28,653 nucleotides of DNA from an uncultured Planctomycetaceae bacterium (GTDB lineage Bacteria; Planctomycetota; Phycisphaerae; SM23-33), in assembly GCA_964461295.1 (NCBI GenBank), contig CAYWTX010000329.1, forward strand, positions 1 to 28,653. Direction: 5' to 3'. Made by a program: the position numbers and the translations under genes. Shown in pieces: positions 2,837 to 21,955 of this stretch (within the stretch, counting starts at the first letter, position 1; every line of letters begins with the position of its first letter). Below the pieces are notes generated by a model. That model had not been told where the DNA came from and made no database searches. It worked only from the letters and a program-made list of their open reading frames with translations.

Positions 2837-2998
2837 GGCTTTACCTTTCTTGGGTAGCGGGGATCATACCCGCGCGGACACGGAACGCCAAGCGGCGGCT
2901 TGGTCGATGCAAGCCGCGGACAAAGCAGGTTCTGTATGGCGGGCCGAGGCCGGCCGAAAACGACGGCACGTTCGCGCACCGCGTCGGTTAGAGGTGGT

Positions 2999-5900
2999 AT
3001 GTCAGCCAGAAGCAATGCGCATTGGATGGCGGCGTCCCTGGTGGGTTCCCTGCTGTGCTTGTCTTGCCTCGCCGCCCAGAGAGGGCCGAGCCCGGCCACG
3101 AACCCGGGGGTCGCCGCGCCCGCCTCGGCGCCGGCGAGTTCGGGGGTGAACGGACCTGACGACACGGTTGCCAAGGCCGCTCGGCTTCGCCTGGCCATTG
3201 AGGACCTCATCGCGACCTTCGGCGACCGCTACGCGCGGGGGCGCGAGTACCTCCGACGGCTCAACGCCCTGGTGGAGGGCCGCGGCCAGGAATCGCTCGA
3301 CGAACTGCGCGACCAAGCCCTGCTGGACAACCCGCTGCTCGATGACATCCAGGGACTGTTGGTCCTGGTGGGAGCGGGAGGTTCCGACGGCGGCACGATG
3401 AGTGTCAGTGCCCACATCGGTAAGGCCATCGGCCTTGTCTCGCCGGTCCGTCCCGGAAAATCAGAGACCGCGCCAGGAATGAAGATCCTGTATGAATCGA
3501 AGTTGGGGCCGGAGGAGGTCGCCAAGTACAAGTGCAAGTGGGACGCCTCCAAAGGTTCCGTCGGGTTCATCAATCTGCACTACGACGCCAGGAAATTCCT
3601 CTTCAGCGCGGCGGCAAGAAACGGATACCAGATCTTCGAGATGAACGTGGACGGCAGCGGTTTGCGGCAGGTGTCCTCGGACGAGCATCCGTACGTGGAC
3701 AACTTCGATCCTGTTTACATGCCGGACGGGCGGATTGTCTTCCTCTCCACCCGCATGTTCCAAGGGGTGCCGTGCCTGGGCGGAGAACCGCATGTCGCCA
3801 ACCTGTTCTCGATGAAGGCCGACGGCAGCGACGTGCGCCAACTCACGTTCGAACAGGACGAAGACTGGGACCCCGCCGTCATGAACGACGGCCGGGTGAT
3901 GTATGTTCGCTGGGAGTACGCCGACACGCCGCACCATCATACCCGGCTGATCTTCACCATGAACCCGGACGGAACAAACCAAAGAGCTCTGATGAAGAGC
4001 AACTCCTATTGGCCCAACGCGATCTTCTACCCAAGGCCGATCCCCAATCATGCCACCCGGTTCGTCGGCGTCATCTCGGGCCATCACGGCGGCGGCCGTT
4101 CCGGTCCCATGTACGTCTTCGATCCGGGCATGGCGAACGAGGCGTCGAGCGCGGTGGTCCAGCGTATTCCGCCCGATCCGAACGAACTGCACAAGTCGCC
4201 GCGGTGGCTGGAGGAATCATCCTATGATGGTCCTCCCCGCATGTCCTGCCCAAAGTATAGCCATCCCCACCCGCTCGCCGATGCCGAGGGGCGCGGGGCC
4301 GGCAAGTACTTCCTGGCGGGAGGGGCCGTGGTGGACGTGTTCGGCAACAGCGTCGGCCTGGCGGGCGGAGGCGCCGAGGTGGTCCCGATCCAGGTCCGAC
4401 CGCGCCCGCCGATCATCCCCGACCGGACGGATCGCACACGCAAGGACGCCCTGGTCTACCTGGCGGATATCCATCGGGGCGGCGGGCTCGAGGGCGTGCC
4501 GCGCGGCACGGTCAAGAAGTTGCGCGTGTTCGAGTATAGCTTCGGGTACCGCGATACCAAGTCCGCCGGCGAAGCGGGCAAGGGCTGGTCTGGTCCGTGG
4601 GAGCCGCATCGAATCTGGGGCACCGTACCGGTGGAAGCAGATGGTTCGGCCCATTTCCTCGTTCCGGCGATGACGCCGCTGGCCCTTCAGCCGCTGGATG
4701 CCGAAGGCAAAGCCCTGCAGGTCATGCGGAGCTGGTTTGTGGCCCAGCCGGGCGAGAGTATTTCCTGTGTTGGCTGTCACGAGCGACCCAAAGACGTTTC
4801 GTCGGGCACAATGGTAGGCGCGGCATTCCGCCGTCCTCCGAACCCGATCGAGCCCTGGTACGGCCCCCCGCGCGGCTTCGGCTTCCACCGCGAGGTCCAA
4901 CCGGTGCTCAACAAGCACTGCGCCGGCTGTCACACGGGCGCGAATGTCCCCAAGGGTGTCAGAAAGCCCAACCTGGTATCCGAGTCACTGAGGGTTTCGA
5001 CGGCCAAGAATGGCCGCACCGCCATAAACCCCAGTGACTCCTTCACGAACCTGCTTCCGTACATCCATCGTCCGTCGTCGGAGAGCGACTACGTCATGCA
5101 TCCGGCCGCCGAATTCGACGCGGACGCCAGCCCGCTGATCCAGATGCTGCGCAGCGGCCACGGCGGCGTGAAACTCGACGCCGAGAGCTGGGACCGCCTG
5201 GTCACGTGGATCGACCTGAACGCGCCGGCATTCGGCACTTGGCGGGAGGGCTGGAGCATCCCCGCGCCCCAAGGCGGCGAGGAAGACTTCAGTGAGCTGC
5301 GGAGGAAGATGCGCAGGCTCTATGCCGGCATCGATGACGATCCTGAGTCCGTGCCGTCGTCCCCGGTGGACCTGGGGCCGCCCGTTAAGCACCAGTCGCC
5401 GCCGGCGGCGCCGGTCCCCGACTGCCCGGGCTGGCCGTTCGACCCCAACGCCGCCGCGAAGATGCAGCAGACGGCCGGCGCAAGGACTTCCAGGCGCGTC
5501 GTGCTCGTGGCCGGCGAAACCGCCCGCGATGTGGTCCTCGACATGGCCCTGATCCCGGCGGGCGAGTTTATGATGGGCGCCAATGAAGGCAGGCCCGACG
5601 AGCGGCCCATGGCCCGGGTGAAGATCGACCGGCCGTTCTGGATGGGCACCTTTGAGATCACCAACCAACAATACAACCTCTTCGATCGACAACACGACAG
5701 CCGCTACCACAATCAACCTAGTTGCCACCTGGGCGGACGGGGCTGGCCCATGAATCATCCGTTGCAGCCGGTCGTGCGGGTCTCCTGGCAACAGGCGGCC
5801 GCGTTCTGCCGCTGGCTGTCGGAGAAGACAGGAGAGAAGTTCCGTCTTCCCACCGAGGCGCAGTGGGAATGGGCCTGCCGGGCCGGGTCCGACAAGCCTC

Positions 5901-6460
5901 TCTCGTTTCGTGACGGCAAGGGCGATTACGGGGCGTGGGCCAACATGGCGAACATTGGGAGTTTCAAGACCAAAACGGGGGCCACGGTCACAATACCCGC
6001 CGGTGCGAGTGAGCCGGTGACGCTGCCGCCCGGGTTCTTCAGTTGGGCCGACCAATCGGCCGCCAGGCCGTTCTCCCTGGTCGCAGAACCGGGGTCCGGG
6101 CTCATGCAGACCGTAGGGGGAATGAACAGCAAAGGTTTTGCCATGTTTGTGAGCGCCACATGGAAGTCCATGCCGCGGTACACTCCCAATCCCTGGGGGT
6201 TGCACAACATGCACGGGAACGCGGCCGAATGGACGGCCACCGCCTATCGCCCCTATCCCTATGATGGGAAAGACGGACGCAATGAGGATGGCGGGGGCCT
6301 GCGCAGAGTGGTGCGTGGCGGTTCCTGCTTTGACCTGCCCACGCATTGCACAGCCAGTGTGCGTACATCGTTCCGCAGTTGGCAGGGCGTCCACAACGTG
6401 GGATTCCGCGTCATATGTGAAGTGGTCGACCCTGGCGAGAAAGCACGGGACCAGGAGTGA
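2999..6460 (+). CDS. large secreted multidomain protein: TolB-like beta-propeller + 2x CxxCH Planctomycete cytochrome c (PSCyt1-like) + C-terminal FGE-sulfatase (SUMF1/formylglycine-generating-enzyme family) domain
   Basis: The ORF frame opens at 2900. The ATG at 2999 (M34) precedes a signal-peptide-like segment (MAASLVGSLLCLSCLAAQ) and has GAGGTGG just upstream. PD40/TolB-like repeats are present (YMPDGRIVFLS, MKADGSDVRQLT, MNDGRVMYV, MNPDGTNQRAL). There are two heme-c motifs, ISCVGCHERP and NKHCAGCHTG; the second is followed by the PSCyt1-like tail ...LVTWIDLNAPAFG. The C-terminal region (LIPAGEFMMG, RVKIDRPFWMGTFEIT, RLPTEAQWEWACRAG, GNAAEWTA, RVVRGGS) matches the FGE-sulfatase/SUMF1 domain signature. 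Confidence 0.75.
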   Translation: MSARSNAHWMAASLVGSLLCLSCLAAQRGPSPATNPGVAAPASAPASSGVNGPDDTVAKAARLRLAIEDLIATFGDRYARGREYLRRLNALVEGRGQESLDELRDQALLDNPLLDDIQGLLVLVGAGGSDGGTMSVSAHIGKAIGLVSPVRPGKSETAPGMKILYESKLGPEEVAKYKCKWDASKGSVGFINLHYDARKFLFSAAARNGYQIFEMNVDGSGLRQVSSDEHPYVDNFDPVYMPDGRIVFLSTRMFQGVPCLGGEPHVANLFSMKADGSDVRQLTFEQDEDWDPAVMNDGRVMYVRWEYADTPHHHTRLIFTMNPDGTNQRALMKSNSYWPNAIFYPRPIPNHATRFVGVISGHHGGGRSGPMYVFDPGMANEASSAVVQRIPPDPNELHKSPRWLEESSYDGPPRMSCPKYSHPHPLADAEGRGAGKYFLAGGAVVDVFGNSVGLAGGGAEVVPIQVRPRPPIIPDRTDRTRKDALVYLADIHRGGGLEGVPRGTVKKLRVFEYSFGYRDTKSAGEAGKGWSGPWEPHRIWGTVPVEADGSAHFLVPAMTPLALQPLDAEGKALQVMRSWFVAQPGESISCVGCHERPKDVSSGTMVGAAFRRPPNPIEPWYGPPRGFGFHREVQPVLNKHCAGCHTGANVPKGVRKPNLVSESLRVSTAKNGRTAINPSDSFTNLLPYIHRPSSESDYVMHPAAEFDADASPLIQMLRSGHGGVKLDAESWDRLVTWIDLNAPAFGTWREGWSIPAPQGGEEDFSELRRKMRRLYAGIDDDPESVPSSPVDLGPPVKHQSPPAAPVPDCPGWPFDPNAAAKMQQTAGARTSRRVVLVAGETARDVVLDMALIPAGEFMMGANEGRPDERPMARVKIDRPFWMGTFEITNQQYNLFDRQHDSRYHNQPSCHLGGRGWPMNHPLQPVVRVSWQQAAAFCRWLSEKTGEKFRLPTEAQWEWACRAGSDKPLSFRDGKGDYGAWANMANIGSFKTKTGATVTIPAGASEPVTLPPGFFSWADQSAARPFSLVAEPGSGLMQTVGGMNSKGFAMFVSATWKSMPRYTPNPWGLHNMHGNAAEWTATAYRPYPYDGKDGRNEDGGGLRRVVRGGSCFDLPTHCTASVRTSFRSWQGVHNVGFRVICEVVDPGEKARDQE

Positions 6461-12026: not shown

Positions 12027-13090
12027 AGCGATTGTGGATCGTCGGGTCGGTTGTGAGCATGTTGGCGGCCGTCGTTCCTGCCGACCTGGGGGGGCAGACC
12101 CCTGCCCCCGCGACCTCCAAGCCCGGTGCGGCCCCGGCCGCTCCGGCGGCAGCCGCGAACGCGGCGCCGACGCGGGAGGAATCGATCCGCCTGACCCTTG
12201 CCGCCATCGACCAGGAACTCAAGGACCACGGCGGGACCTTCGAGAAGTGGGGCGCGTCGATCAAGCCGTACCGCGACCAGCTATCCAAGCTCAAGAACCC
12301 GGCGATCAAGTGGCCCTGGCCGGCGAAGCATGACTTCGCCTTCCAGGGCAGAGAGATCGACCTGGTGATGCTCGACACGTTCGACAACGAGCCGGAAGGC
12401 AAACGCCCGTTCGAGGCCATCCTGGAGGTCCACAAGAGACTCAAGGAGCAGGGGGTCGACCTGATCTACGCGCCCCTGCCCGACAAGCTGGCGATCTACC
12501 CGGATTACCTGTCGGACACTGCGCCGGCCGACAAGATGGTCACCCCGGCGGTCAAGCAGTTGATGAAGAAGCTGTTGGGCAGCGGCGTTGAGTGCGTGGA
12601 CCTGTATCCGGCCTTCTACGCCCACCGCAAGGGGCATGGGGACGACAAGCCTCTTTATTACGACAAGAACAGCCACTGGCGGAACCTCGGCGCGCAACTG
12701 GCCGCCGCCGAGATCGCCCGCCCGCTCATGCGCTACGACTTCGTGCGGAAGGCCTTGGCTGAAGGGAACCGCTACTCGGTGAAACCCGACCGGCGGCAGT
12801 CGAGTTCGCCCGAAGACATCCTGGTGGTGCTGGACGCCAAGACCGGCGGACGCTATGCCGATGCCCCGGACTCGCCCATCCTCATCACCGGCGACAGCAA
12901 CCTGATGATGAACATGGGCACGGTCGGCGGGCATATGCCGGCCCATGTCGGCCGGCACATCGGCCTGCCGCTGGCGTTTGGCTCCAACACCATCCCATCG
13001 CAGCACTACGGCAAGCTGGGCGGAAAGAAAGTGGTGATCTGGTCCAACATAGCCCGCATGTTGGTGGGAATGGGTTACCCGACGAAGTAG
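12023..13090 (+). CDS. secreted AlgX/AlgJ (DHHW)-family SGNH-hydrolase-like protein, putative polysaccharide O-acetyltransferase/esterase
   Basis: 355 aa. The start ATG overlaps the upstream stop (ATGA at 12023-12026), and a perfect AAGGAG lies at 12011-12016 with a 6-nt spacer. A signal peptide is present (MKRLWIVGSVVSMLAAVVPA). The family motifs are LIYAPLPDKLAIYPDYL and DKNSHWRNLGAQLAAAEIA (D-x-HW); GDSNL occurs near the C-terminus. The upstream part of the track ORF 10697-13090 is an out-of-frame overlap with the preceding gene and is not part of this gene. Confidence 0.6.
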   Translation: MKRLWIVGSVVSMLAAVVPADLGGQTPAPATSKPGAAPAAPAAAANAAPTREESIRLTLAAIDQELKDHGGTFEKWGASIKPYRDQLSKLKNPAIKWPWPAKHDFAFQGREIDLVMLDTFDNEPEGKRPFEAILEVHKRLKEQGVDLIYAPLPDKLAIYPDYLSDTAPADKMVTPAVKQLMKKLLGSGVECVDLYPAFYAHRKGHGDDKPLYYDKNSHWRNLGAQLAAAEIARPLMRYDFVRKALAEGNRYSVKPDRRQSSSPEDILVVLDAKTGGRYADAPDSPILITGDSNLMMNMGTVGGHMPAHVGRHIGLPLAFGSNTIPSQHYGKLGGKKVVIWSNIARMLVGMGYPTK

Positions 13091-13111
13091 CGCGACCCGG
13101 AATGTGGCGGG

Positions 13112-14203
13112 CTAGAACCGTCCGAGGTCGCGTTCGGGCAGGAGCTTGCGGACGAGCACGTACCGCTGCTGGCGGTAGACGTTGAGTTCGCCGGTGATGC
13201 GGTAGAGAGGGGCCCGCAGGTAGCCCTTTGCGACGTGGGCGTCCTGCACCGCTTGCAGGAACTGCGAGGGCAGGATGCGAACGGGCGGCTCGCCGAGGGT
13301 GTTGTCCGACTCGAACCTCGCGGCCCACCAGCCGCCGCTGCCCGGGTCGGGCAGGACCCGCACGAGGCGGTCGACGATCATGGCGCCGCGGTCGGGCGCC
13401 AGCTCCTTGGTTGCCCCGGGCGCCACCGACGGCACGGGCGCCACCTTCGGCGGCGCCGTTTCCAGCAGGACCGGCTTGCCGACCTTCTCGCTCATGAGTT
13501 GGCCGAACACCGCATCGGCCGAGGGTCCGGGCTTGGCCGGGCGCGAGGCCGGGCCGGAGGCGGGCGCGGTGGCCGGGGCCGAAGCGGGCACGGGCGGCGG
13601 CGGGGGCGCGGGCGAGGCAACCTTTGGCGCGGGCGAGGGTCCCTCGTCCACCACGGTTGCCTTGCGGGGCATGAGGTAGGCGTGGTCGCGGAAGACGAAC
13701 GTCTCGCCGGAGACGCGGAACCGCACGTGGATGGACTGGACGGCGTGCTGTTGCATCACCTCCAGCAACCGGCAGGGCATGACGCGGCGCGCCGGCTCGG
13801 GCGCCTTGGCGGGCTCGTTCTCGAAGGTGAGCAGGTACCACTGGGCAGCATCGTCCAGCGAGAGCCGGCAGAGACGGTCGATGACCATGCTGCCGTCGGT
13901 GGGCAGGTCGGGGCGCTGCCTGGGCGCCTCGACGCCGACGGGCGTGGAAACGGGCACGGGCGGCCGATCGAGCAGCATGCGGGCGATGGCGCCGCTTTCG
14001 TCCGAGGCGGACATGTCGAAGGCGGGACGCGACGGGCGGTTGGGATCGGGCGCTGGCTGGGCCCGCGCCGACACACAGGGGGCGCCGACCAACAGGGCCG
14101 CCCAAAGGCATGCCGCGACGGATGTCGTGCCGCTGTTCAAGATACCAGGATTGTAGCGAGCAGGGGCTGGCAGGGGAAGCCTTCGCGCGATCAGGTGTCC
14201 CAT
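13112..14203 (-). CDS. hypothetical secreted protein with an internal tandem duplication of a ~85-aa domain separated by a Pro/Ala-rich linker
   Basis: 363 aa. A signal-like segment is present (TTSVAACLWAALLVGAPCVSARA). Two homologous segments are GSMVIDRLCRLSLDDAAQWYLLTFENEP...RVMPCRLLEVMQQHAVQSIHVRFRVSGETFVFRDHAYLM and GAMIVDRLVRVLPDPGSGGWWAARFESDN...RILPSQFLQAVQDAHVAKGYLRAPLYRITGELNVYRQQRYVLV. The linker is PAPKVASPAPPPPPVPASAPATAPASGPASRPAKPGP. The overlapping ORF 12885-14111 is R/A/G-rich and is judged a shadow frame. Confidence 0.45.
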   Translation of the reverse strand: MGHLIARRLPLPAPARYNPGILNSGTTSVAACLWAALLVGAPCVSARAQPAPDPNRPSRPAFDMSASDESGAIARMLLDRPPVPVSTPVGVEAPRQRPDLPTDGSMVIDRLCRLSLDDAAQWYLLTFENEPAKAPEPARRVMPCRLLEVMQQHAVQSIHVRFRVSGETFVFRDHAYLMPRKATVVDEGPSPAPKVASPAPPPPPVPASAPATAPASGPASRPAKPGPSADAVFGQLMSEKVGKPVLLETAPPKVAPVPSVAPGATKELAPDRGAMIVDRLVRVLPDPGSGGWWAARFESDNTLGEPPVRILPSQFLQAVQDAHVAKGYLRAPLYRITGELNVYRQQRYVLVRKLLPERDLGRF

Positions 14204-14303
14204 CTCAATGGAAGTGTCACTGTCACTGGTTTGTGCTGCAACTAAAGTGTCACCCCGTGCCCCCCGTCAAGGCGGCGGAGCGGAGGGAGGCGTCATCATT
14301 CGC

Positions 14304-14792
14304 TCACATGCCCTTCGTGAAGATCACCTTGTCGTCGCCGACGCTGTAGAAGTCCTTCACGCGCGCGGCGATGCCGTAGCCGCAGCGCAGGTAGAACTGC
14401 CGCGTCGGCTCGTACTGCTCGCGGCCGTTGGTTTCCACCACGGCCAGGCGGCCCCCGAACTGGCCGATGGACCGTTCGGAGTGGGCCATCAACGCCTTGC
14501 CGATGCCCTTGCCCTGTACCGTGCGGCACACGGCGATCCAGTAGATGTCGTAGGTGCCGACCGTGCATGGAGTGGGGCCAAAGCACACCCAGCCGACGGC
14601 GCGGCCGGAGAGTTCGGCGGTGCAGGACTGGTAGTGCCCCGAAGGTCCCTTGGCAAGGGCGTCGTCGAGGACCTCGGCGGCGATGTCGATCTCGTCGGGG
14701 CGGAACATGCCGGTGGCGAGCATGAAGTCGAGGATGGCCTGGCGGTCGGAAGCCCGACTCGGACGAATTGTCAAATGCGGAGTATTGTGCAC
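14304..14792 (-). CDS. GNAT family N-acetyltransferase
   Basis: 162 aa. The acetyl-CoA binding motif is V-QGKGIGKALM (Q/RxxGxG/A), with a GNAT fold-like layout ending ...YLRCGYGIAARVKDFY. It is the last gene of the KamA/ATP-grasp operon. Confidence 0.85.
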   Translation of the reverse strand: MHNTPHLTIRPSRASDRQAILDFMLATGMFRPDEIDIAAEVLDDALAKGPSGHYQSCTAELSGRAVGWVCFGPTPCTVGTYDIYWIAVCRTVQGKGIGKALMAHSERSIGQFGGRLAVVETNGREQYEPTRQFYLRCGYGIAARVKDFYSVGDDKVIFTKGM

Positions 14793-14841
14793 TATTGGTC
14801 TTTCTGTCGCCCCCGCGGGGCTCCGGTGCCTGCTATGTGGT

Positions 14842-14865
14842 GGCCGGGGGCTTTCGCCCCCGGCC
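14842..14865. other. 10-bp GC hairpin ggccgggggc-tttc-gcccccggcc between ATP-grasp A stop and GNAT start
   Basis: The stem is perfect with a tetraloop. A second small palindrome, gcccccgcggggc, lies at 14809-14821. There is no U-tract, so this may be an intra-operon processing or attenuation structure. Confidence 0.4.
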
Positions 14866-14930
14866 AGACCCTGACCGCCCCTCCGGGGCGAAGAGCCAAG
14901 ATGGTTCTGCCGGCTGTCCTCTTGTCCGGA

Positions 14931-16049
14931 TCATGCCCTCATCGCGTTCTCGACGCAGTTGCGGACAAAGTCCTCGCAGGCCCAGCCGGCGAAGTCGACG
15001 GCCGAGGCGAACCCGCCTTCGGGCGAGATATCGGGGTTGGGGTTCACTTCGAGCACCATCGGGCGTCCGGCCTCGTCGAGGCGGAAGTCCACGCGGGCGT
15101 AGTCGCGGCAGCCGAGAGCCTGCCAGGCCCGCAGGCTGATCTGCCGCGTCAGCCGTTCGACGCGGCGAGGCAAGGGGGCGGGGAGGATCCGGGGAGTATT
15201 GTTGTATCCGAACGTGTTCGGCAGCCACTTGGCCGCGTAGTCCACGATCCGGTGCATGCCGGGCTGGAACGTGGAGAAGTCGATCTCGGCGACGGCTAGC
15301 ACCTCGGCCTGGCCGGCCCGCTCAACGACCGAGACGTTCAGTTCGCGGCCGTCGATGTACTGCTCGACGATGGCCGGCTGGGCGAATTTCTCGTGGATCT
15401 CGCGGAGGGCGCGGGCCAGGCGGGGGCCGGCGCCCGGCACGATGGACCGCTCGGCGTGGATGCCTTCGGATGCGTCGGTGAAGACGGGCTTGACGATCAG
15501 CGGCCCAGGCGGCAGGTCGGCCCGCGAGACGCGCTGGCCGGGATCGACGAGCACGGCCCGGGGCACGGGCACGCCTGCGGCCGACAGGACGGCCTTGCTC
15601 CGCCACTTGTCCAGCGACAGGGCCAGGCATTCGGTGGTGTTGCCGGTGAAACTCCGTCCCATCGCGATGCAGACGGCGGGCGCCAGGTTTGCCTCCTGCG
15701 GGCGCTGCTGGAAGCCTTCGACGAGGTTGAACACGACGGGCTCATCGCCGGCGGCGAGGGCGGCGGGCACATCCCGTAGCGTGGCGGCCGAGGCCTTCCG
15801 GCAGGTCGCGCCGAGGCGGTCGAGGGCGGCGGCGACGGCGTTGACTTCCTCCAGGACGCCGGCTTCGCTCTCGATGTAGCCGCCGGCGGCGCCGGCAGCG
15901 GCGGGCTCGTTGTAGAGGATGACGACGGAGGGGAGCCTTTCGCGCCGGGATTCCTCGCGCCGCGAGCGATCGGACCCAAAACGGGCGAGCCGCTCTCTTC
16001 CCGAGAATCGGCAATCGGCAATCGGCAATTCGCACTCTCCCTTACGCAC
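14931..16049 (-). CDS. D-alanine--D-alanine ligase family ATP-grasp enzyme (amide/peptide ligase), paralog A
   Basis: 372 aa. ATP-grasp features are LIVKPVFTDASEGI, EQYIDGRELNVSVV, DYARVDFRLDEAGRPMVLEVNPNPDISP (compare Ddl E(V/I)NT(I/L)PG), and the N-terminal Ddl-like VVILYNEP...EVNAVAAAL. The start, GTG at 16049, overlaps the upstream stop by 8 nt. The N-terminal ~40 aa are low-complexity and contain a heptamer repeat, so the start is uncertain. Confidence 0.75.
   Translation of the reverse strand: MRKGECELPIADCRFSGRERLARFGSDRSRREESRRERLPSVVILYNEPAAAGAAGGYIESEAGVLEEVNAVAAALDRLGATCRKASAATLRDVPAALAAGDEPVVFNLVEGFQQRPQEANLAPAVCIAMGRSFTGNTTECLALSLDKWRSKAVLSAAGVPVPRAVLVDPGQRVSRADLPPGPLIVKPVFTDASEGIHAERSIVPGAGPRLARALREIHEKFAQPAIVEQYIDGRELNVSVVERAGQAEVLAVAEIDFSTFQPGMHRIVDYAAKWLPNTFGYNNTPRILPAPLPRRVERLTRQISLRAWQALGCRDYARVDFRLDEAGRPMVLEVNPNPDISPEGGFASAVDFAGWACEDFVRNCVENAMRA
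16008..16028. repeat. tandem heptamer (TTGCCGA)x3 on minus strand (tcggcaa x3 on plus) at the ATP-grasp B/ATP-grasp A gene junction
   Basis: Minus-strand reading is gaa ttgccga ttgccga ttgccga ttctcg. It sits 14-34 nt downstream of the ATP-grasp B stop (16042-44) and inside the annotated N-terminal extension of ATP-grasp A (encoding ELPIADCRF). Confidence 0.8.
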
Positions 16050-17019
16050 GTTTCATCGCGCTCAGAAGGATCTCCGAGATCAGATGTCTGTAGCTCATTC
16101 CTTCCTGCGTGGCGATCATCGGCAGGTCGCTGTGCGTGGGGTGCATGCCCGGCAGCGGGTTGACCTCGATGAAGCTCGGGCGGCCGTCGGCGTCGAGGCG
16201 GATGTCGACGCGGCTGACGTCGCGGCATTCGAGGGCGATGTGTGCCCGCAGGGCGAGGTCCTCGACGGCGCTGCGGACAGGCCCGCGCCGCGGGGCCGAG
16301 TAGCGCACCAGTTTCTCGCACTTCTCCTTCATCTCGAAGGAGTAGATCGCCTTGCCGTCGTCGGGCAGGATCTCCACCTCCATCGTGCCGATCACGCGGG
16401 CGTCGGCCCCCGTGCCGAGGACGGCGGTGGTGAACTCGCGCCCGGGGAGGTACTCCTCCACCAGCACGCTCTGGCGGTACTTCGCCAGCAGCGCTCGGCA
16501 TGCGGCGGGGAGCTGGTCGGGCGTGTCGATGCGGGAGGCGGCGTCGATGCCCTTGCCCGTGCCCTCGGCGATGGGCTTGACGAACAGCGGGTAGCGCAGT
16601 GCATGGCCGTCCAGTTGGGCTTCGCTGCCGACCACGAGGAACTCCGGCGTTCGCAGGCCGGAGGCCCGCACGAGCCGTTTGGCGACGGCCTTGTCCAGCG
16701 TGGCCGCGCTCACCAGCGGGTCGGAGAACGTGTACGGCACGCCGTACAGTTCGAGAATGGCGGGCACCTGGGCCTCGCGGCTGCGGCCGGCCAGGCCCTC
16801 AGCGATGTTGAACACGAGGTCCCATCGGTCGCCGGCGACGAGACGCTTGCACAACGCGCGGGCATGGCCGATGCGGTCGGTCGTGTGGCCGAGCGAGCCA
16901 ATGGTCGACTCGATCGCCTCGATGGTCGATTCGCTGTCGAACTCCGCGACGTCCTCGATGCCGTAGCCTTCGGCGAGGTAGTCGGTCCGCAGATCGTATG
17001 TCAGGCCGATGGCGGCCAT
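16042..17019 (-). CDS. D-alanine--D-alanine ligase family ATP-grasp enzyme (amide/peptide ligase), paralog B
   Basis: The frame opens with TTG at 17046 and an ATG at 17019 (MAAIGLTYDL...). ATP-grasp motifs are PLFVKPIAEGTGKGI, EEYLPGREFTTAVLG, SRVDIRLDADGRPSFIEVNPLPGMHP, and the N-terminal Ddl-like DLVFNIAEGLAG. The sequence is clearly paralogous to 14931-16049. Confidence 0.75.
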   Translation of the reverse strand: MAAIGLTYDLRTDYLAEGYGIEDVAEFDSESTIEAIESTIGSLGHTTDRIGHARALCKRLVAGDRWDLVFNIAEGLAGRSREAQVPAILELYGVPYTFSDPLVSAATLDKAVAKRLVRASGLRTPEFLVVGSEAQLDGHALRYPLFVKPIAEGTGKGIDAASRIDTPDQLPAACRALLAKYRQSVLVEEYLPGREFTTAVLGTGADARVIGTMEVEILPDDGKAIYSFEMKEKCEKLVRYSAPRRGPVRSAVEDLALRAHIALECRDVSRVDIRLDADGRPSFIEVNPLPGMHPTHSDLPMIATQEGMSYRHLISEILLSAMKRA

Positions 17020-17071
17020 GGGTGCTCCACATCGATCAAGCCGCAAGGGACGCGGGCAAAGAAGAGACGTT

Positions 17072-17098
17072 CACAGATCACACAGATATCACAGATCA
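17072..17098. repeat. tandem 9-nt repeat cacagatNN x3 in the kamA/ATP-grasp intergenic spacer
   Basis: cacagatca cacagatat cacagatca occurs at 17072, 17081 and 17090 (exact period 9). The 326-bp spacer (17020-17345) has lower GC than its surroundings. Confidence 0.7.
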
Positions 17099-17187
17099 AG
17101 AGGACAAGGTTCTCCTCTTGTCTTTCCTCTGCGCAATCTGCACTACTATCCGCAACTTTCTTCGTCTCCCGCGCTGATTCTTCAATC

Positions 17188-17214
17188 GCAGAGGGCGCAG
17201 AGGACGCAGAGAAG
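17188..17214. repeat. tandem 9-nt repeat gcagagNNN x3 plus flanking inverted copies (atcgcagag 17185-17193 / ctctgcgat 17249-17257; ctctgcgcaat 17127-17137)
   Basis: gcagagggc gcagaggac gcagagaag lie at 17188, 17197 and 17206. The same CGCAGAG/CTCTGCG core occurs in inverted orientation 55 nt downstream and 50 nt upstream. This looks like an array of protein-binding sites. Confidence 0.6.
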
Positions 17215-17345
17215 GGCTCTGGAAGAAGGTCTCCGCGATCTCGGCGTTCTCTGCGATCAGCCCTTCGGTCGCGGGCAAGGCCCGCGCTGGGCAATCCACG
17301 GACCGTCTCTTCCCTGCCCCTCCGCGTCTCCGCGGCCAGCGACGT

Positions 17346-18746
17346 TCACTGAAACAACGGGGTCTGGATGGTCTGCACGTGCTCGTGGCTCGCGCGGGGT
17401 TGGGGGGTGCGGCCCTGCACGCTGGGGCGCACCTTCGCCTCGCGCCGGTCCTGGCGGGCCGTGTGCGCCGGCTGAATCTTCGACGCCCGCCCGCACGTCA
17501 GGTCGTGGACGGTGGGGGAGTCGATCTCGGCCGTCGCGGGCGCCACGTTGGCGTTGGGCTCCGGGTAGGACACGAGCACGCCTTCGAAGTTCCGAAGCAC
17601 CGTGTGCGACGGGCTGCTGGAAACGATGTACGTGGGCAGCACGGGGATCTTGCCGCCGCCGTGGGGGGCGTCCACGACGAACGTCGGGATCGCCAGCCCG
17701 CTCAGCCGCCCGCGCAGAAACTCCATGATCTCCACGCCCCGGCTGATCGGCGTGCGGAAATGCTCCACGCCGCGGACCAGGTCGCATTGGTACAGGTAGT
17801 ACGGGCGCACGCGCATCCGCACCAGCCGCCGGCAGAGGTCCATCATCAGGGCGGGGTCATCGTTGATCCCGCGCAGCAGCACGGACTGGTTGCCCATGGG
17901 CACGCCCGCGTCGACGAGCTTGCGGCAGGCTTCCCGCGCTTCGGGCGTGATCTCCGAGGGGTGGTTGAAGTGCGTGTTCAGCCACAGCGGGTGGTGCTTG
18001 CGCAGCATGGCCACCAGCGAATCGGTGATCCGCATGGGCATCGTCACGGGCACGCGCGTCCCGATACGAATGATCTCGACGCTGGGCACGGCCCGCAGGG
18101 CCGCCAGGACCCGGTCCAGCGCCTCGTCGCCCATCGTGAGCGGGTCGCCGCCGGATACGATGACGTCATGCACTTCGCCGTGGGCCGTCAGGTACGCCAC
18201 GACCTGGCTCAGGCGCGAGGCGGAGATGCACGATTCCCGGTGCCCGGCGGCGCGCTTCCGCGTGCAGTGCCGGCAGTACATCGCGCACGTCGTCGTCGCG
18301 ATCAGCAGGGCGCGGTCGCCGTAGCGGTGCACCAGGCCCGGCACGGGCATGTCGTGGTCTTCCTCGAGCGGGTCGTCGGCCAGGAACGGCGGATCGAACA
18401 GCTCGTGAAGCTGCGGCACGGCCATGCTGAAGACCGGGTCGGTGGGCCCCAATTCGCGAATGAGCGAAGCATAGTACGGGGTGATCGCAAGCGGAAACTT
18501 CTCGGCGGCCTGTGCCAACCCCGCTTCAGGCCGCAGGGAAGGGTAGAATTCCTGAAGCTGCTCCACGCTTCGGATTCTGTGGCGCATCTGCCACTGCCAA
18601 TCGCTCCAGCGAGCGTCGTTTCTCAGCGAGGCAAGCTTGGCCGATGGCGTTACGCCGTCTGCCCGTCCGCCTCCGTCCGTGCCGGCGGACTTAGATGGAG
18701 GTTCATCACTTGAAACTGCGTCCGAGGCTTCGACCATTTCTAGCAT
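17346..18746 (-). CDS. kamA: lysine 2,3-aminomutase (KamA family radical SAM / PLP enzyme)
   Basis: Radical-SAM cluster motif CAMYCRHCTRKR (CxxxCxxC) is present. The KamA N-terminal hallmark is ARWSDWQWQMRHRIRSVEQL (compare KAM DWNDWRWQxRNRI). YYLYQCDLVRGVEHFRTP and PTFVVDAPHGGGKIPV retain the two Asp positions that, from memory, bind the lysine epsilon-amine in Clostridium KAM and are Lys/Asn in glutamate 2,3-aminomutase. M12 (18746) is chosen so the gene does not overlap tetR (stop at 18760); the frame opens at 18779. Confidence 0.85.
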   Translation of the reverse strand: MLEMVEASDAVSSDEPPSKSAGTDGGGRADGVTPSAKLASLRNDARWSDWQWQMRHRIRSVEQLQEFYPSLRPEAGLAQAAEKFPLAITPYYASLIRELGPTDPVFSMAVPQLHELFDPPFLADDPLEEDHDMPVPGLVHRYGDRALLIATTTCAMYCRHCTRKRAAGHRESCISASRLSQVVAYLTAHGEVHDVIVSGGDPLTMGDEALDRVLAALRAVPSVEIIRIGTRVPVTMPMRITDSLVAMLRKHHPLWLNTHFNHPSEITPEAREACRKLVDAGVPMGNQSVLLRGINDDPALMMDLCRRLVRMRVRPYYLYQCDLVRGVEHFRTPISRGVEIMEFLRGRLSGLAIPTFVVDAPHGGGKIPVLPTYIVSSSPSHTVLRNFEGVLVSYPEPNANVAPATAEIDSPTVHDLTCGRASKIQPAHTARQDRREAKVRPSVQGRTPQPRASHEHVQTIQTPLFQ

Positions 18747-18759
18747 AAACACGATTCTC

Positions 18760-19470
18760 CTACTTCTTGGGTTCGGCACCGGCAGGCCCCGTCGTCGTAC
18801 CCGGTTGGATCGACGGGGGCGTCCCCTGGTTGGCCAGGAACGCTTCAGACGCCGCTACAAACGCCTGCCGCATCGGACCCAGACTTTTCTTGATTTCCTC
18901 GGCCGCAAGATCGATCATCGCAAACGAAAGGAAGCCGGAAACAAACCCGGCTATCGCGTACGTCAGCCTCTGCACCTTCTTGCGGTCAAGTTGCAGCACA
19001 AAGGGCGTAAGGAAGTTCTCGATCTCGGTGAGATACCGCCGGTACGGCTGTTCCAGGTCCTCGATGGCTTCGCGCTGCAACTTCAGCAGCAACCTGCCCT
19101 GGAACAACAGGACGAACGCGTCGCGGCTGGTCTGCGAGAAGTCCCAATGCACCAGCAGCAGGCGGTCGAGGGCTTCAGGCAAGTTGCGCGGGGCAGGCTT
19201 GTGGTCGGAAAGTGCCGTAAGCAGAAGAGTTACCACGTCATCCACCAAAGCCACCATCAACTCCTCCCTGCAAGAGAAGTGCCGGTAGAAAGTCCCCTTG
19301 CCCAGGTCGGCCGCTTCGGTGATCTCTTCGATCGTGGTCGCGTCGGAGCCCTTGTCGGCGAACTTGCGGAGCGCTGCGTCCAGCAACCGCTTGCGGGTGC
19401 GTGAGGTACGTCGCGCGGAGCGTGTCTTGCGTGCTTCAGATTGTTCCACTGCAATCGCCATTTCGACCAA
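18760..19470 (-). CDS. TetR/AcrR family transcriptional regulator
   Basis: 236 aa. The N-terminal HTH is RKRLLDAALRKFADKGSDATTIEEITEAADLGKGTFYRHFSCREEL (the classic TetR_N signature ...T(V/I)xxIAxxAGVSxGTxYxHF), followed by a ~180-aa helical ligand-binding domain. The start is TTG 19470 or ATG 19461. It lies immediately upstream of kamA on the same strand. Confidence 0.85.
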   Translation of the reverse strand: MVEMAIAVEQSEARKTRSARRTSRTRKRLLDAALRKFADKGSDATTIEEITEAADLGKGTFYRHFSCREELMVALVDDVVTLLLTALSDHKPAPRNLPEALDRLLLVHWDFSQTSRDAFVLLFQGRLLLKLQREAIEDLEQPYRRYLTEIENFLTPFVLQLDRKKVQRLTYAIAGFVSGFLSFAMIDLAAEEIKKSLGPMRQAFVAASEAFLANQGTPPSIQPGTTTGPAGAEPKK

Positions 19471-19950
19471 TCGTTAGGAGATTATCGTCATGTCTGACCG
19501 AGTAGTCAAGAGTGACTTTGCGGTCGCAAGAGATTTTTCTTGTCTTCTCCCCCCAAGCCGCTGAAGTGGGAGGCGATGGTACCCCCAAAGCGTAGGGGGG
19601 GAAGCGGGGGACGCCAAGATGTGGCGACGCGGAGAAGCGAGCGACGCCGAGACACAGGGACGGGCAGACTCGGGATCCCTGGCCGCTCTGGCCATCCCAT
19701 CCACGGCTGGCAAGACCAGTGGGAGTCCGTAAGAGGTAACACTTCACCCCTCTGCAACGAATTGTGCGGGTGGCGGCGGGAGTTGGCCAGTCGTCAGGTA
19801 GGTCCGCAAGGCCGAATCCATCGTGGCCAACGGGTCCTGCCCACGCAACTTCAACGTTCGGTACACGCCCATCAGGACGGCTCTGAAAGGGCAGCAGAAC
19901 GTTGGCCCTTATATCGCCCTTACAGGGCTGACCACCACACACCACCATTT

Positions 19951-19995
19951 CCCAGGGCGTTGCCCTGGGCTGTCATATCCCAGCCCTTCAGGCTG
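19951..19995 (-). terminator. two GC-rich hairpins immediately downstream of the SPFH gene stop (possible factor-independent terminator of the ESCRT-like operon)
   Basis: cccagggc-gtt-gccctggg (8-bp stem, 19951-19969) and cagcc-cttca-ggctg (5-bp stem, 19981-19995) lie 50-95 nt below the stop at 20045 on the transcribed strand. The trailing sequence (gggaaauggugguguguggugg) is only weakly U-rich. Confidence 0.3.
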
Positions 19996-20044
19996 AAGAA
20001 TCCGACGCCTTCTTGCCTGCTGCCTATCCGGCGGCCCGCAACCG

Positions 20045-21955
20045 CTACTGCCTCTTGCCGCAAGCGGGGCAGAAGCCTCCGCCGGATTCCAGGGCGGCGC
20101 CGCAGTGGCGGCACCTGGCGCCCGCGCCGATGACCACCGGCGTGCCGGCCAGGCCGGCGACCACCATCGGTTGCGGCGCGGCGCGGCGCCCGGCCGCGGC
20201 CGCCGTCACCGCCGCCACCACCTGCTCCAGCGATGTCTTCATCAGCCGCTCCATGCGGTCGGCGTGCGAATCGGCCATCTGCTTCTGGTCGGCAAGCTGT
20301 TTCTCCAACGCGGCGGCCCGCTCCCCCGAGATCGCGCCCTCGTCGCGGTACTTCTGGGTCAGCGCCCTGGCCGCCTCCGGCGAGGCCGCCGCCGCCAACG
20401 CCAGAATCTGATCCGGCGTCATGTTCTGCTGCGCACGCACCCGCTCCAGCTCGACGATCCTCTCGGCGGCCGGGCCGTCCACAATCGCCATGATCGCCCG
20501 CGACGTGCTCTTGCTCAGCGCCTCCAGCCGCGCCGCCTCACGCTTCTGCTCGCGGTCCAGCGCGTCCTGTTCAACGGCCACCGTCTCCCGCAGCAGCCGC
20601 TGGCCCAGCTCCGCCTCCGCCTTGTCCCGCGCGAACTCGTCCCACTCGACCTTCTTCTTCAGGGCGTGCTCGGCCTCCTCCTGCCGCAGCTTCTCGCCGT
20701 GCTCCAATCGGCCCATCTCCAGCCGCACCTTGCCCTGTTCGGCCTCGCCCTTTGCCGCATCCAGGCGCCGCTGAAGACCGCGCATCTGCCGTTCGTCCTG
20801 CCGCCTTTCGTCGTGCAGCAGCGCTTCCCACTGCTTGGCCCGCTCGGCGCCGTCCTGAAGCGTCTCGATCTCGATCCGCCGCAGGATGCCCTCGCGGCCG
20901 CGCTCGAACTCCAGCCTTGCCGCCAGCCGCGCCATCTCGTCGCCCCGGATGACTTCCCGGAGCCCCAGTTCGTGCTCGGTCTGGCGGATGAACTGCTCGA
21001 GGTCCTTGCCCGTCTTGAACTCGTGCATCTTGTCCGTCGAGAACGTCTCCCGCAGGCGCTGGGCCAGCCTCGTCCGCTGCTCGGTGACGTCGGCCTCGCG
21101 ATCGGCAAAGCCCGCGCTCCGCTGCTTGTCGGCCAGGTCCGCCTCCCGCCGGCGAATCCTCTCGTAGGCCTCGCCGGCGAAGCTGACGAAGCGGATCTGC
21201 ACCAGCTCCAGCCCCATGCGCCGCAGCGTGGGCGCCACCGCCTGGCGAAGGTCTTCCTCGATCCGCGCGCGGATGGCGGGGTCGGTGAACAGCCGCTCGG
21301 CAGGATGCCGGCCGGCAATGCCCGCCAGGAGCATCTGGACCTCGTCGGCAAGTTGCTGCTCCATCTCGGCGACCGTCAGGACGTTGCGGCCCTTGAACAG
21401 GTTGACGTACAGCGCGTCCATGTCGGCGATGCGAAAGACGAGCCGCTCCACGCTGCCGACCTCGATCTTGTCGGCCGTCCACAGGCCGCCGTTCTCCAGG
21501 TCGATCGTCACGTCGCCGGCGTCGATGAGGACCACGGATGCGTCCTGATCGATCATGAAATGGTTGAGCCGGTTGAGGAACCCGCCCATGTCATGCCGGC
21601 CGGCCGGCAGTTCGGCGCGGAACCTGCCGGCCTGGAAGAGCAGCGCTCGCGTACCGTGGTCGATCACCAGCGGCTTGGCCAGCCAACCCTTGACATCCTG
21701 GTTGTCCACCCGGACGGCGAAGTCGCCGTCGCGGCGCGACCAGCGGTCGTTGAGCAGCGTCGGCTTGGCCACCTGCGACAGGTCGGCGCCGCAACGCCAG
21801 CAGAACTTGCTCGTCCGGGCCACCTCCGCGGCGCAGGACCCGCACTGCGTGAGTCCCTTGGGCCCCACGGCCCCGCACTTGGGGCAGAACTGCGAGCCCT
21901 TGCGCACGCGATAGTCGCATTCCCGATTCACGCACCGGTTCGTGAACAATCCCAT
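20045..21955 (-). CDS. double zinc-ribbon + SPFH/Band-7 (flotillin/YdjI-like) domain protein with long E/R-rich coiled coil and C-terminal zinc ribbon
   Basis: 636 aa. The N-terminus has CPKCGA...CGSCAA...CWRCGA (two C-x2-C pairs). A Band_7_1/SPFH-like core follows (RHDMGGFLNRLNHFMIDQDASVVLIDAGDVTIDLENGGLWTADKIEVGSVERLVFRIADMDALYVNLFKG ... LVQIRFVSFA). It then has ~250 aa of charged coiled coil, and the C-terminal zinc ribbon is CRHCGAALESGGGFCPACGKR. AAGGAG lies at 21962-21967 (minus sense), 6 nt before the ATG. Confidence 0.7.
   Translation of the reverse strand: MGLFTNRCVNRECDYRVRKGSQFCPKCGAVGPKGLTQCGSCAAEVARTSKFCWRCGADLSQVAKPTLLNDRWSRRDGDFAVRVDNQDVKGWLAKPLVIDHGTRALLFQAGRFRAELPAGRHDMGGFLNRLNHFMIDQDASVVLIDAGDVTIDLENGGLWTADKIEVGSVERLVFRIADMDALYVNLFKGRNVLTVAEMEQQLADEVQMLLAGIAGRHPAERLFTDPAIRARIEEDLRQAVAPTLRRMGLELVQIRFVSFAGEAYERIRRREADLADKQRSAGFADREADVTEQRTRLAQRLRETFSTDKMHEFKTGKDLEQFIRQTEHELGLREVIRGDEMARLAARLEFERGREGILRRIEIETLQDGAERAKQWEALLHDERRQDERQMRGLQRRLDAAKGEAEQGKVRLEMGRLEHGEKLRQEEAEHALKKKVEWDEFARDKAEAELGQRLLRETVAVEQDALDREQKREAARLEALSKSTSRAIMAIVDGPAAERIVELERVRAQQNMTPDQILALAAAASPEAARALTQKYRDEGAISGERAAALEKQLADQKQMADSHADRMERLMKTSLEQVVAAVTAAAAGRRAAPQPMVVAGLAGTPVVIGAGARCRHCGAALESGGGFCPACGKRQ

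Follow-up and report, generated by a model that had tools for sequence, protein, structure and literature searches.

Two described systems, PylB/PylC of the pyrrolysine pathway and EpmB/EpmA of EF-P β-lysylation, pair a radical SAM lysine mutase with an ATP-dependent ligase that joins the carboxylate of the mutase product to an amine, and PylC is an ATP-grasp enzyme. Ngg reportedly couples a GNAT to an ATP-grasp ligase in the production of N-acetylglutaminylglutamine amide (NAGGN), an N-acetylated dipeptide-type solute. The established two-gene route to N-ε-acetyl-β-lysine is AblA/AblB (KamA/YodP; PMC3543383). Here we describe a locus sharing features with each of these systems in a 28,653-nucleotide stretch of DNA (hereafter the window) from an uncultured Planctomycetaceae bacterium. 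On balance, we consider it probable that the locus is one copy, under TetR control, of a widespread cassette encoding a pathway to an N-acetylated, β-lysine-containing amide. Full-text searches of the literature turned up no paper on this cassette, and no curated family was found for it.

The five co-directional minus-strand genes listed in an earlier note on this DNA, encoding a TetR-family regulator, KamA, two ATP-grasp ligases (B and A) and a small GNAT, were all found at the positions given there, and their domain assignments are backed by Pfam and NCBIfam (Table 1). The tetR stop lies 13 nt from the ATG of kamA. An 8-nt overlap between the two ligase genes, also claimed earlier, holds if ligase A starts at GTG 16049 but not with the public gene calls, which place its start at TTG 16028 (365 aa), 13 nt past the stop of B, with a Shine-Dalgarno-like AGGGAG 8 nt upstream. 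Ligase A and the GNAT are separated by 138 nt (14793-14930) containing a GC-rich, perfect hairpin with 100% complementary stems that is not followed by a T-run. With this gap and its strong hairpin, and with the spacer between kamA and ligase B, the genes could fall into more than one transcription unit here. About 270 nt of the spacer are an insertion specific to this lineage, given that a relative with an 85% identical ligase B has a 54-nt gap at this place, and the spacer contains no deacetylase remnant, Rfam match or coding-strand terminator. An origin as the leftover of a deacetylase gene was rejected, as no remnant was present and the spacer sequence is unique. No riboswitch or other known RNA was found in the whole window, nor 5' of kamA in the 19 related loci that were searched.

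Table 1 Features of the cassette locus and its surroundings (window coordinates).
Feature	Position	Strand	Remarks
Sigma-70-like promoter	19481..19509	-	TTGACT-17 nt-GATAAT, directly 5' of tetR
Palindrome, predicted TetR operator	19495..19508		TGAC-N6-GTCA, overlaps the -35 hexamer
TetR-family regulator	18760..19470	-	Likely ATG 19461; Pfam TetR_N, E 6e-14
kamA, KamA/AblA-type lysine 2,3-aminomutase (radical SAM + PLP)	17346..18746	-	E 3e-137 vs 2A5H
kamA-to-ligase-B spacer	17020..17345	-	326 nt
ATP-grasp ligase B	16042..17019	-	Ddl fold; Pfam Dala_Dala_lig_C
ATP-grasp ligase A	14931..16049	-	Paralogue of B; start probably TTG 16028
Hairpin in the A-to-GNAT gap	14841..14866	-	GGCCGGGGGC-GAAA-GCCCCCGGCC, inverted repeat I1
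GNAT acyl-CoA N-acyltransferase	14304..14792	-	Pfam Acetyltransf_1
Internally duplicated protein, 363 aa	13112..14203	-	Neighbour outside the conserved cassette

Based on its sequence, KamA very probably converts L-lysine to β-lysine. In lysine 2,3-aminomutases, Asp293 and Asp330 bind the ε-amino group of the substrate, and Lys/Asn occupy these positions in glutamate 2,3-aminomutase. Alignment to the Clostridium subterminale enzyme (2A5H) shows that the window KamA keeps D293, D330 and K337, and the motifs YQCDL and VVDAPHGGGK are conserved. Among 73 KamA sequences (72 orthologues and the window's own), the radical SAM cluster motif CxxxCxxC, R134, D293 and D330 are invariant, and the PLP-binding K337 is shared by 72, the remaining one having a gap at this position. 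Since Asp stands at both specificity positions, as the proposal of a β-lysine pathway had called for, we assign this KamA to the lysine type rather than the glutamate type. In profile searches, KamA falls just under the equivalog cut-off of the NCBIfam AblA model (TIGR03820; 507.8 vs 525.4 bits), which counts against our reading of the locus; it passes the KamA subfamily model (TIGR00238; 317.7 vs 199.2) and lies far under the cut-offs of the glutamate (427.5 bits), arginine and EpmB models. A glutamate, arginine or EpmB-type aminomutase is rejected on the specificity residues and model scores.

Both ligases are publicly annotated as D-alanine--D-alanine ligase, and structure models give them the Ddl fold. 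They are 31% identical to each other (E 9e-29), and B is 52-73% identical between phyla. Both have the full set of ATP, Mg and catalytic residues known from E. coli DdlB, with K97, K144, E180, E187, K215, R255, D257, E270 and N272 invariant or nearly so in the two families; B and A are therefore predicted, by homology, to be catalytically competent Ddl-fold ATP-grasp amide ligases. In contrast, the D-Ala site has been replaced in a manner that is family-specific and conserved within each family. At the DdlB positions, B carries E for H63, T for S150, E for Y216 and D for L282 while retaining S281, and A carries E for H63, A for S150, W for Y216 and G/G for S281/L282. By homology, the substrate pockets appear to have been rebuilt, and that of B would have turned acidic. 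Both proteins also miss the family cut-offs, with 167.8 (B) and 112.1 bits (A) against 243 for the best Ddl model, and 137 and 95 against 245.65 for TIGR01205. Compared with Ddl and VanA, they are only 18-29% identical, B has an insertion of about 20 residues after strand 1 with invariant E26 and D28, and the genomic context is kamA instead of mur/ftsQ; no mur or fts cell-wall gene occurs in the window or among the conserved neighbours of 86 cassette loci. The missed cut-offs, replaced D-Ala residues and absent mur genes lead us to reject a true Ddl identity, in agreement with the earlier reading of these genes. As to β-lysine being a substrate of B or A, it is the gene linkage alone that suggests it.

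This linkage is extensive. In 75 of the 86 loci kamA lies directly 5' of B on the same strand, and A and the GNAT come after this pair in most, an arrangement far beyond chance. The loci derive from Planctomycetota, Verrucomicrobiota, Lentisphaerae, Kiritimatiellia, Sumerlaeota, Eisenbacteria, Acidobacteriota, Myxococcota, Spirochaetota and Bacteroidales (more than 10 phyla overall), two further Desulfovibrionaceae-type loci carry the same cluster, and the cassette is present in hundreds of bacteria, mostly anaerobic. Brocadiia-type loci have a minimal module of kamA and B without A or GNAT, and B is the most conserved partner of KamA. The proposed functional linkage of the cassette genes is strongly supported because synteny is conserved and A is found fused to GNAT. 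All-against-all clustering of ORFs of at least 90 aa from the 86 loci found no other conserved neighbour family such as a transporter, carrier protein or peptidase; conserved extras are limited to TetR, a deacetylase fusion and, in one clade, a CxxCxxCC protein. A role in anti-phage defence was rejected, as PADLOC gave no hit. Downstream of the GNAT gene, the protein that the earlier note described as tandem-duplicated and possibly part of the same transcript is indeed duplicated (29% identity over 146 aa, E 7e-16 in self-comparison), and it is 56% identical to the product of a gene at the matching position in the closest relative. It is missing from the other 85 loci and matches no Pfam or NCBIfam family. 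Its membership in the unit is unsupported, as only the closest relative keeps the gene, and it is a lineage-specific neighbour only.

The 162-aa window GNAT is a split-off version of a domain that is mostly fused to ligase A: most database homologues of ligase A bear a C-terminal GNAT, and 32 of the 62 loci having both encode them as a fusion. By homology it has an acyl-CoA-binding motif, and it matches no AblB family model in NCBIfam, with weak hits to RimI and PRK03624 only. It is homologous to 2R7H (E 1.3e-34), a GNAT from structural genomics that was deposited under the name 'putative D-alanine N-acetyltransferase' and for which there is a structure only and no assigned substrate. This protein, presumably from Desulfovibrio alaskensis G20, has relatives in Oleidesulfovibrio and Desulfovibrio, and a metagenome contig carries the gene of a near-identical protein within a kamA-ligase-ligase-GNAT cluster. 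Unlike the window, that cluster has no tetR but a sigma-54 activator gene alongside; D. mangrovi alone showed a sigma-54 promoter, with upstream activator sites, at its cluster in place of tetR-type control. About a quarter of the loci, not including this window, additionally encode a GNAT-histone-deacetylase-like fusion.

An orthologous tetR precedes kamA in 28 of the 86 loci, and its product in the window falls below every NCBIfam equivalog cut-off. The protein has an N-terminal TetR helix-turn-helix, and a palindromic predicted operator lies over its own promoter. This promoter is the sole promoter-like site in 12800-20100, and its -35/-10 layout is repeated in orthologous loci. The palindrome has a single match in the whole window, with no second operator found within the cluster, and 19 of 25 loci have it within 250 nt 5' of tetR, where its density is about 220-fold higher than elsewhere (3.68 vs 0.017 per kb). 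We suggest that TetR would bind this site and let go when a ligand is bound.

In the pathway that we favour, B would activate or accept the β-lysine made by KamA and probably form the first amide bond, and A together with its usually fused GNAT would form the second amide bond and attach an N-acetyl group. The expected product would be a cytoplasmic N-acetylated di- or tri-amide containing β-lysine. In cassettes with the GNAT-deacetylase fusion, the acetyl group may be taken off again, so that acetylation may act as protection or as a charge switch. Thus the earlier reading of the locus stands with regard to its lysine-type KamA, its non-Ddl ligases and the linkage of its genes, but not to the downstream protein as a part of the unit. 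The cassette resembles PylB/PylC and EpmB/EpmA in its pairing of a radical SAM lysine mutase with an ATP-dependent ligase. It resembles Ngg by domain make-up, in that GNAT and ATP-grasp ligase are coupled, in cassette orthologues in one polypeptide. However, the ligase here has the Ddl fold (not RimK- or cyanophycin-like), the order is ligase then GNAT, an asparagine-synthetase-type amidase is lacking and the substrate would be supplied by a radical SAM aminomutase; no Ngg-type family was matched by the cassette proteins. A compatible-solute role for the product would have nothing beyond analogy in its favour and, since most host genomes were, by record titles, obtained from anoxic habitats that are not saline, a specialised osmolyte is not favoured.

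Among other explanations, a macromolecule rather than a free amino acid could be the substrate of the ligases, which would place β-lysine on a carboxylate or amine of a protein, peptide or cell-envelope polymer, with GNAT and deacetylase acting on the conjugate. EpmA modifies EF-P in such a manner, and RimK and LysX act on protein C-termini. However, among ORFs of at least 90 aa neither a conserved small ORF nor a gene for a carrier protein goes with the cluster, the ligases are in sequence and fold clearly nearest to Ddl, a small-molecule ligase, and fusion of the GNAT to a ligase is like metabolite pathways, so we regard macromolecule modification as unlikely. More doubtful is a pathway that ends at N-acetyl-β-lysine, a known compatible solute requiring KamA and a GNAT, with the ligases serving an unrelated function. 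The locus shares with AblA/AblB a lysine-type KamA with the Asp pair beside an acetyl-CoA-dependent GNAT, AblA is the model nearest to KamA, and a charge-masked β-lysine derivative is expected as the product of both. Nevertheless, the GNAT here belongs to another family and is mostly joined to ligase A, two ATP-dependent ligases are added, and the constant partner of KamA is ligase B rather than an acetyltransferase, as seen in kamA-B modules without any GNAT. Less probable again is that the ligases build a polymer from β-lysine, by itself or mixed with another amino acid, for storage or as a polycation like cyanophycin or ε-poly-lysine, although two paralogous ligases could lengthen a chain in alternation and the acidic pocket residues of B would fit a cationic chain. 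Finally, it is highly improbable that these are genes of lysine catabolism, even though clostridial lysine fermentation begins with KamA, or that the ligases are spare peptidoglycan Ddl as annotated, since genes for β-lysine 5,6-aminomutase, 3,5-diaminohexanoate dehydrogenase and the 3-keto-5-aminohexanoate cleavage enzyme are absent nearby and the ligases lack the Ddl hallmarks discussed above.

The pathway to an acetylated β-lysine amide that we propose ties a well-understood radical SAM enzyme to two unexplored amide ligases and points to a β-lysine metabolite that has apparently never been sought. The D-alanine--D-alanine ligase label carried by thousands of cassette proteins is almost certainly wrong. 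Many hosts belong to lineages that are hard to study, including anaerobic Planctomycetota, anammox bacteria, Kiritimatiellia and Sumerlaeota. The cultured hosts Desulfovibrio mangrovi, D. psychrotolerans and Oceanidesulfovibrio indonesiensis make the cassette directly testable, the crystal structure of a GNAT is already deposited (2R7H) and transposon mutants of D. alaskensis G20 are available as a library (PMC4045070). More tentatively, and at somewhat less than even confidence, we suggest that B and A may be the first Ddl-fold enzymes for a β-amino acid, and that the cassette product may be an undescribed β-lysine amide, a metabolite common among anaerobic bacteria of the Planctomycetota-Verrucomicrobiota group, Desulfovibrionaceae, Bacteroidales and Spirochaetota, with the GNAT and GNAT-deacetylase providing a protect-ligate-deprotect scheme or a charge switch.

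The five co-directional ORFs of the earlier reading were confirmed, on the minus strand, at the positions then proposed (see table).

Features of the cassette and its immediate surroundings in the window
Feature	Coordinates	Strand	Description
tetR	18760-19470	minus	likely ATG 19461; Pfam TetR_N
kamA	17346-18746	minus	ATG 13 nt past tetR stop; Pfam Radical_SAM + LAM_C
kamA-to-B spacer			326 nt, between kamA and ATP-grasp B
ATP-grasp ligase B	16042-17019	minus	Pfam Dala_Dala_lig_C
ATP-grasp ligase A	14931-16049	minus	Pfam Dala_Dala_lig_C
GNAT	14304-14792	minus	after 138-nt gap; Pfam Acetyltransf_1
363-aa protein	13112-14203		internally duplicated; N-terminal hydrophobic segment

The predicted aminomutase aligned with the C. 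subterminale lysine 2,3-aminomutase (PDB 2A5H) across 361 residues (E 3e-137), with YQCDL (Asp293), VVDAP (Asp330) and GGGK (PLP Lys337) all conserved. The lysine specificity assumed in the earlier note, against that of a glutamate enzyme, is upheld because glutamate 2,3-aminomutase reportedly (Ruzicka and Frey) has Lys and Asn where the lysine enzyme has the two Asp, both of which KamA keeps. AblA was the top NCBIfam model (507.8 bits, cut-off 525.4), and scores to the glutamate, arginine and EpmB models fell far under their cut-offs. Across 73 aligned KamA sequences (the window's own and 72 from related loci), the three cysteines, Arg134 and both Asp were invariant and Lys337 was present in 72, the other having a gap; one public KamA call (406 aa) is too short, dropping residues that align with 13-24 of the clostridial enzyme. 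Homology thereby identifies KamA as a predicted beta-lysine-forming enzyme.

Ligases B and A are paralogues (31% identity, E 9e-29) that matched only Ddl/Van models in NCBIfam, all under cut-off, with best Ddl-model scores of 167.8 and 112.1, respectively, against a cut-off of 243. When both proteins and ~85 orthologues apiece were aligned to E. coli DdlB (reference sequence identical to 1IOV), K97, K144, E180, E187, K215, R255, D257, E270 and N272 (DdlB numbering) showed little or no variation in either family, so B and A should be active ligases that form acyl phosphates. Residues of the D-Ala site are substituted in both, in a conserved manner: H63 is E in B and A, S150 is T in B and Ala in A, Y216 is E in B and W in A, and L282 is an invariant D in B and G in A, with S281 retained in B only. 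AlphaFold2 models (pLDDT 84.8 each) retrieved only Ddl/VanA among their top 50 Foldseek matches, at 16-27% identity, and no mur genes were found near the ligases in the window, where the cassette neighbours include a glycoside-hydrolase-like protein, an AlgX-type SGNH protein, an SPFH protein and AAA ATPases. Together, the sub-cut-off scores, replaced D-Ala site and missing mur linkage rule out true Ddl, a reading that would have refuted the earlier proposal, and by homology the pair are predicted to be two competent ATP-dependent amide ligases of Ddl fold. The best 120 database relatives of B (64-100% identical), from Planctomycetota, Eisenbacteria, Kiritimatiellia and Sumerlaeota, are annotated as Ddl.

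The GNAT matched a structural-genomics GNAT (PDB 2R7H, E 1.3e-34) and is, by homology, of the acyl-CoA type. A metagenome contig encoding a protein 99% identical to 2R7H has the order sigma-54 activator, kamA, ligase, ligase, GNAT, which recurs in D. mangrovi with the addition of a GNAT-deacetylase fusion. This ~590-aa protein, found in 22 loci (L001, L003, L088, L086 and 18 more) and absent from the window, joins a weak GNAT-like domain to a histone-deacetylase-type amidohydrolase domain; its gene is an optional cassette member with two alternative slots, kamA/B or A/GNAT.

Scanning a single genome from each species gave at least 547 candidate loci, of which 80 were kept, and synteny was assessed in 86 loci (the window and 85 others) searched with the window's proteins. 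In 75 of the 86, kamA and B share a strand and kamA lies immediately 5' of B; A and GNAT follow B in most, and TetR is upstream in 28; median identities are 62% (KamA), 61% (B) and 51% (GNAT). A and GNAT form a single ORF in 32 of 62 loci, and database homologues of ligase A are mostly ~520-aa fusions with GNAT. The predicted functional linkage of the cassette genes rests on this synteny and these fusions. In anammox-type and some other loci the cluster comprises no more than kamA, a CxxCxxCC protein and B, followed by unrelated genes, so KamA plus B is the minimal unit. Brocadiia/Planctomycetaceae loci L060, L066-L070, L074, L077, L078 and L081 carry a ~180-aa ORF with a CxxCxxCC zinc/iron-chelating domain (PF03692) between kamA and B. 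Clustering of all ORFs of at least 90 aa in the loci revealed no further conserved family around the cassette.

The 8-nt overlap previously described between B and A stands only if A starts at GTG 16049; it is lost with the TTG start of the public gene calls (16028, 365 aa), which follows the B stop by 13 nt and an AGGGAG site by 8 nt. Three tandem copies of the 7-mer TTGCCGA (16008-16028) start exactly at this TTG codon. Between A and GNAT, a hairpin (14841-14866) whose 10-bp GC stem is perfect and whose loop is GAAA, with no T-run after it, could act in transcript stabilisation or attenuation. In the window's closest relative (B 85% identical) just 54 nt separate kamA and B, relative to which the window carries a ~270-nt insertion (17047-17345) containing CACAGATCA three times, a 17-nt inverted repeat and an 11-nt hairpin. 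A deacetylase gene occupies the interval in a relative with a 77% identical B; the window's spacer holds no deacetylase remnant and no terminator or promoter match on the coding strand, and its sequence is unique within the window and among all loci compared. Rfam gave no match in the window or upstream of kamA in 19 relatives.

The sole sigma-70-like promoter in 12800-20100, TTGACT-17-GATAAT (19509-19481), lies just 5' of tetR, and its -35 hexamer is overlapped by the window's single TGAC-N6-GTCA palindrome (19495-19508). Of 25 loci from several phyla, 19 carry this palindrome in the 250 nt preceding tetR, where its density is 3.68 per kb versus 0.017 per kb elsewhere, the picture expected of an autoregulated operator to which TetR would bind. 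Just upstream of this promoter region, on the same strand as tetR, a gene (20045-21955) encodes a 636-aa protein that begins and ends in zinc ribbons and contains an SPFH/Band-7 domain plus a long, charged region resembling a coiled coil. D. mangrovi (L086, 5293-5569) instead has a canonical -24/-12 sigma-54 promoter (TGGCAT-N5-TTGCT) and two upstream GCGGAAC...GTTCCGC sites (paired CGGAAC-N6-GTTCCG), with the cluster behind a sigma-54 activator gene. Another locus (L087, 5310-5465) shares the activator gene and paired sites, with no -24/-12 promoter in the region examined. The TetR-type and sigma-54-type promoter regions argue for conditional expression under different regulators in different hosts.

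The downstream duplicated protein, earlier suggested to share the transcript, does not appear to belong to the cassette. It consists of two copies of a ~140-aa module, both with a conserved R-x-Y-(L/V)-x-(P/V)-RK motif at the end, and matches no family. A single orthologue (56% identity) was seen, in the closest relative, where it occupies the equivalent position; the other 85 loci lack the gene, which is thus a lineage-specific neighbour. Elsewhere in the window, a 1186-aa ORF (2900-6460) encodes both a hydrazine-synthase-alpha middle domain (PF18582) and an FGE-sulfatase domain.

We hypothesise that B acts directly on beta-lysine, since it is the constant partner of KamA and has acquired invariant acidic pocket residues that suit a diamino substrate. 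A together with GNAT would form a second amide bond and add an acetyl group, and the optional deacetylase may undo the acetylation. Precedents for this chemistry are PylB/PylC and EpmB/EpmA, in which the carboxylate of a lysine-mutase product is joined to an amine, and Ngg, in which a GNAT and an ATP-grasp ligase are coupled to yield an N-acetyl dipeptide solute. Record titles place the host genomes in habitats such as digesters, freshwater sediments, groundwater and peat, which do not particularly favour an osmolyte role. Full-text literature searching turned up no account of this cassette, and neither NCBIfam nor PADLOC has a family that covers the ligases, the GNAT or the deacetylase. The predicted product would fall among the beta-amino-acid-derived, N-acetylated amide metabolites of GNAT/ATP-grasp chemistry, a known kind, and the cassette is widespread, mis-annotated and open to direct testing.
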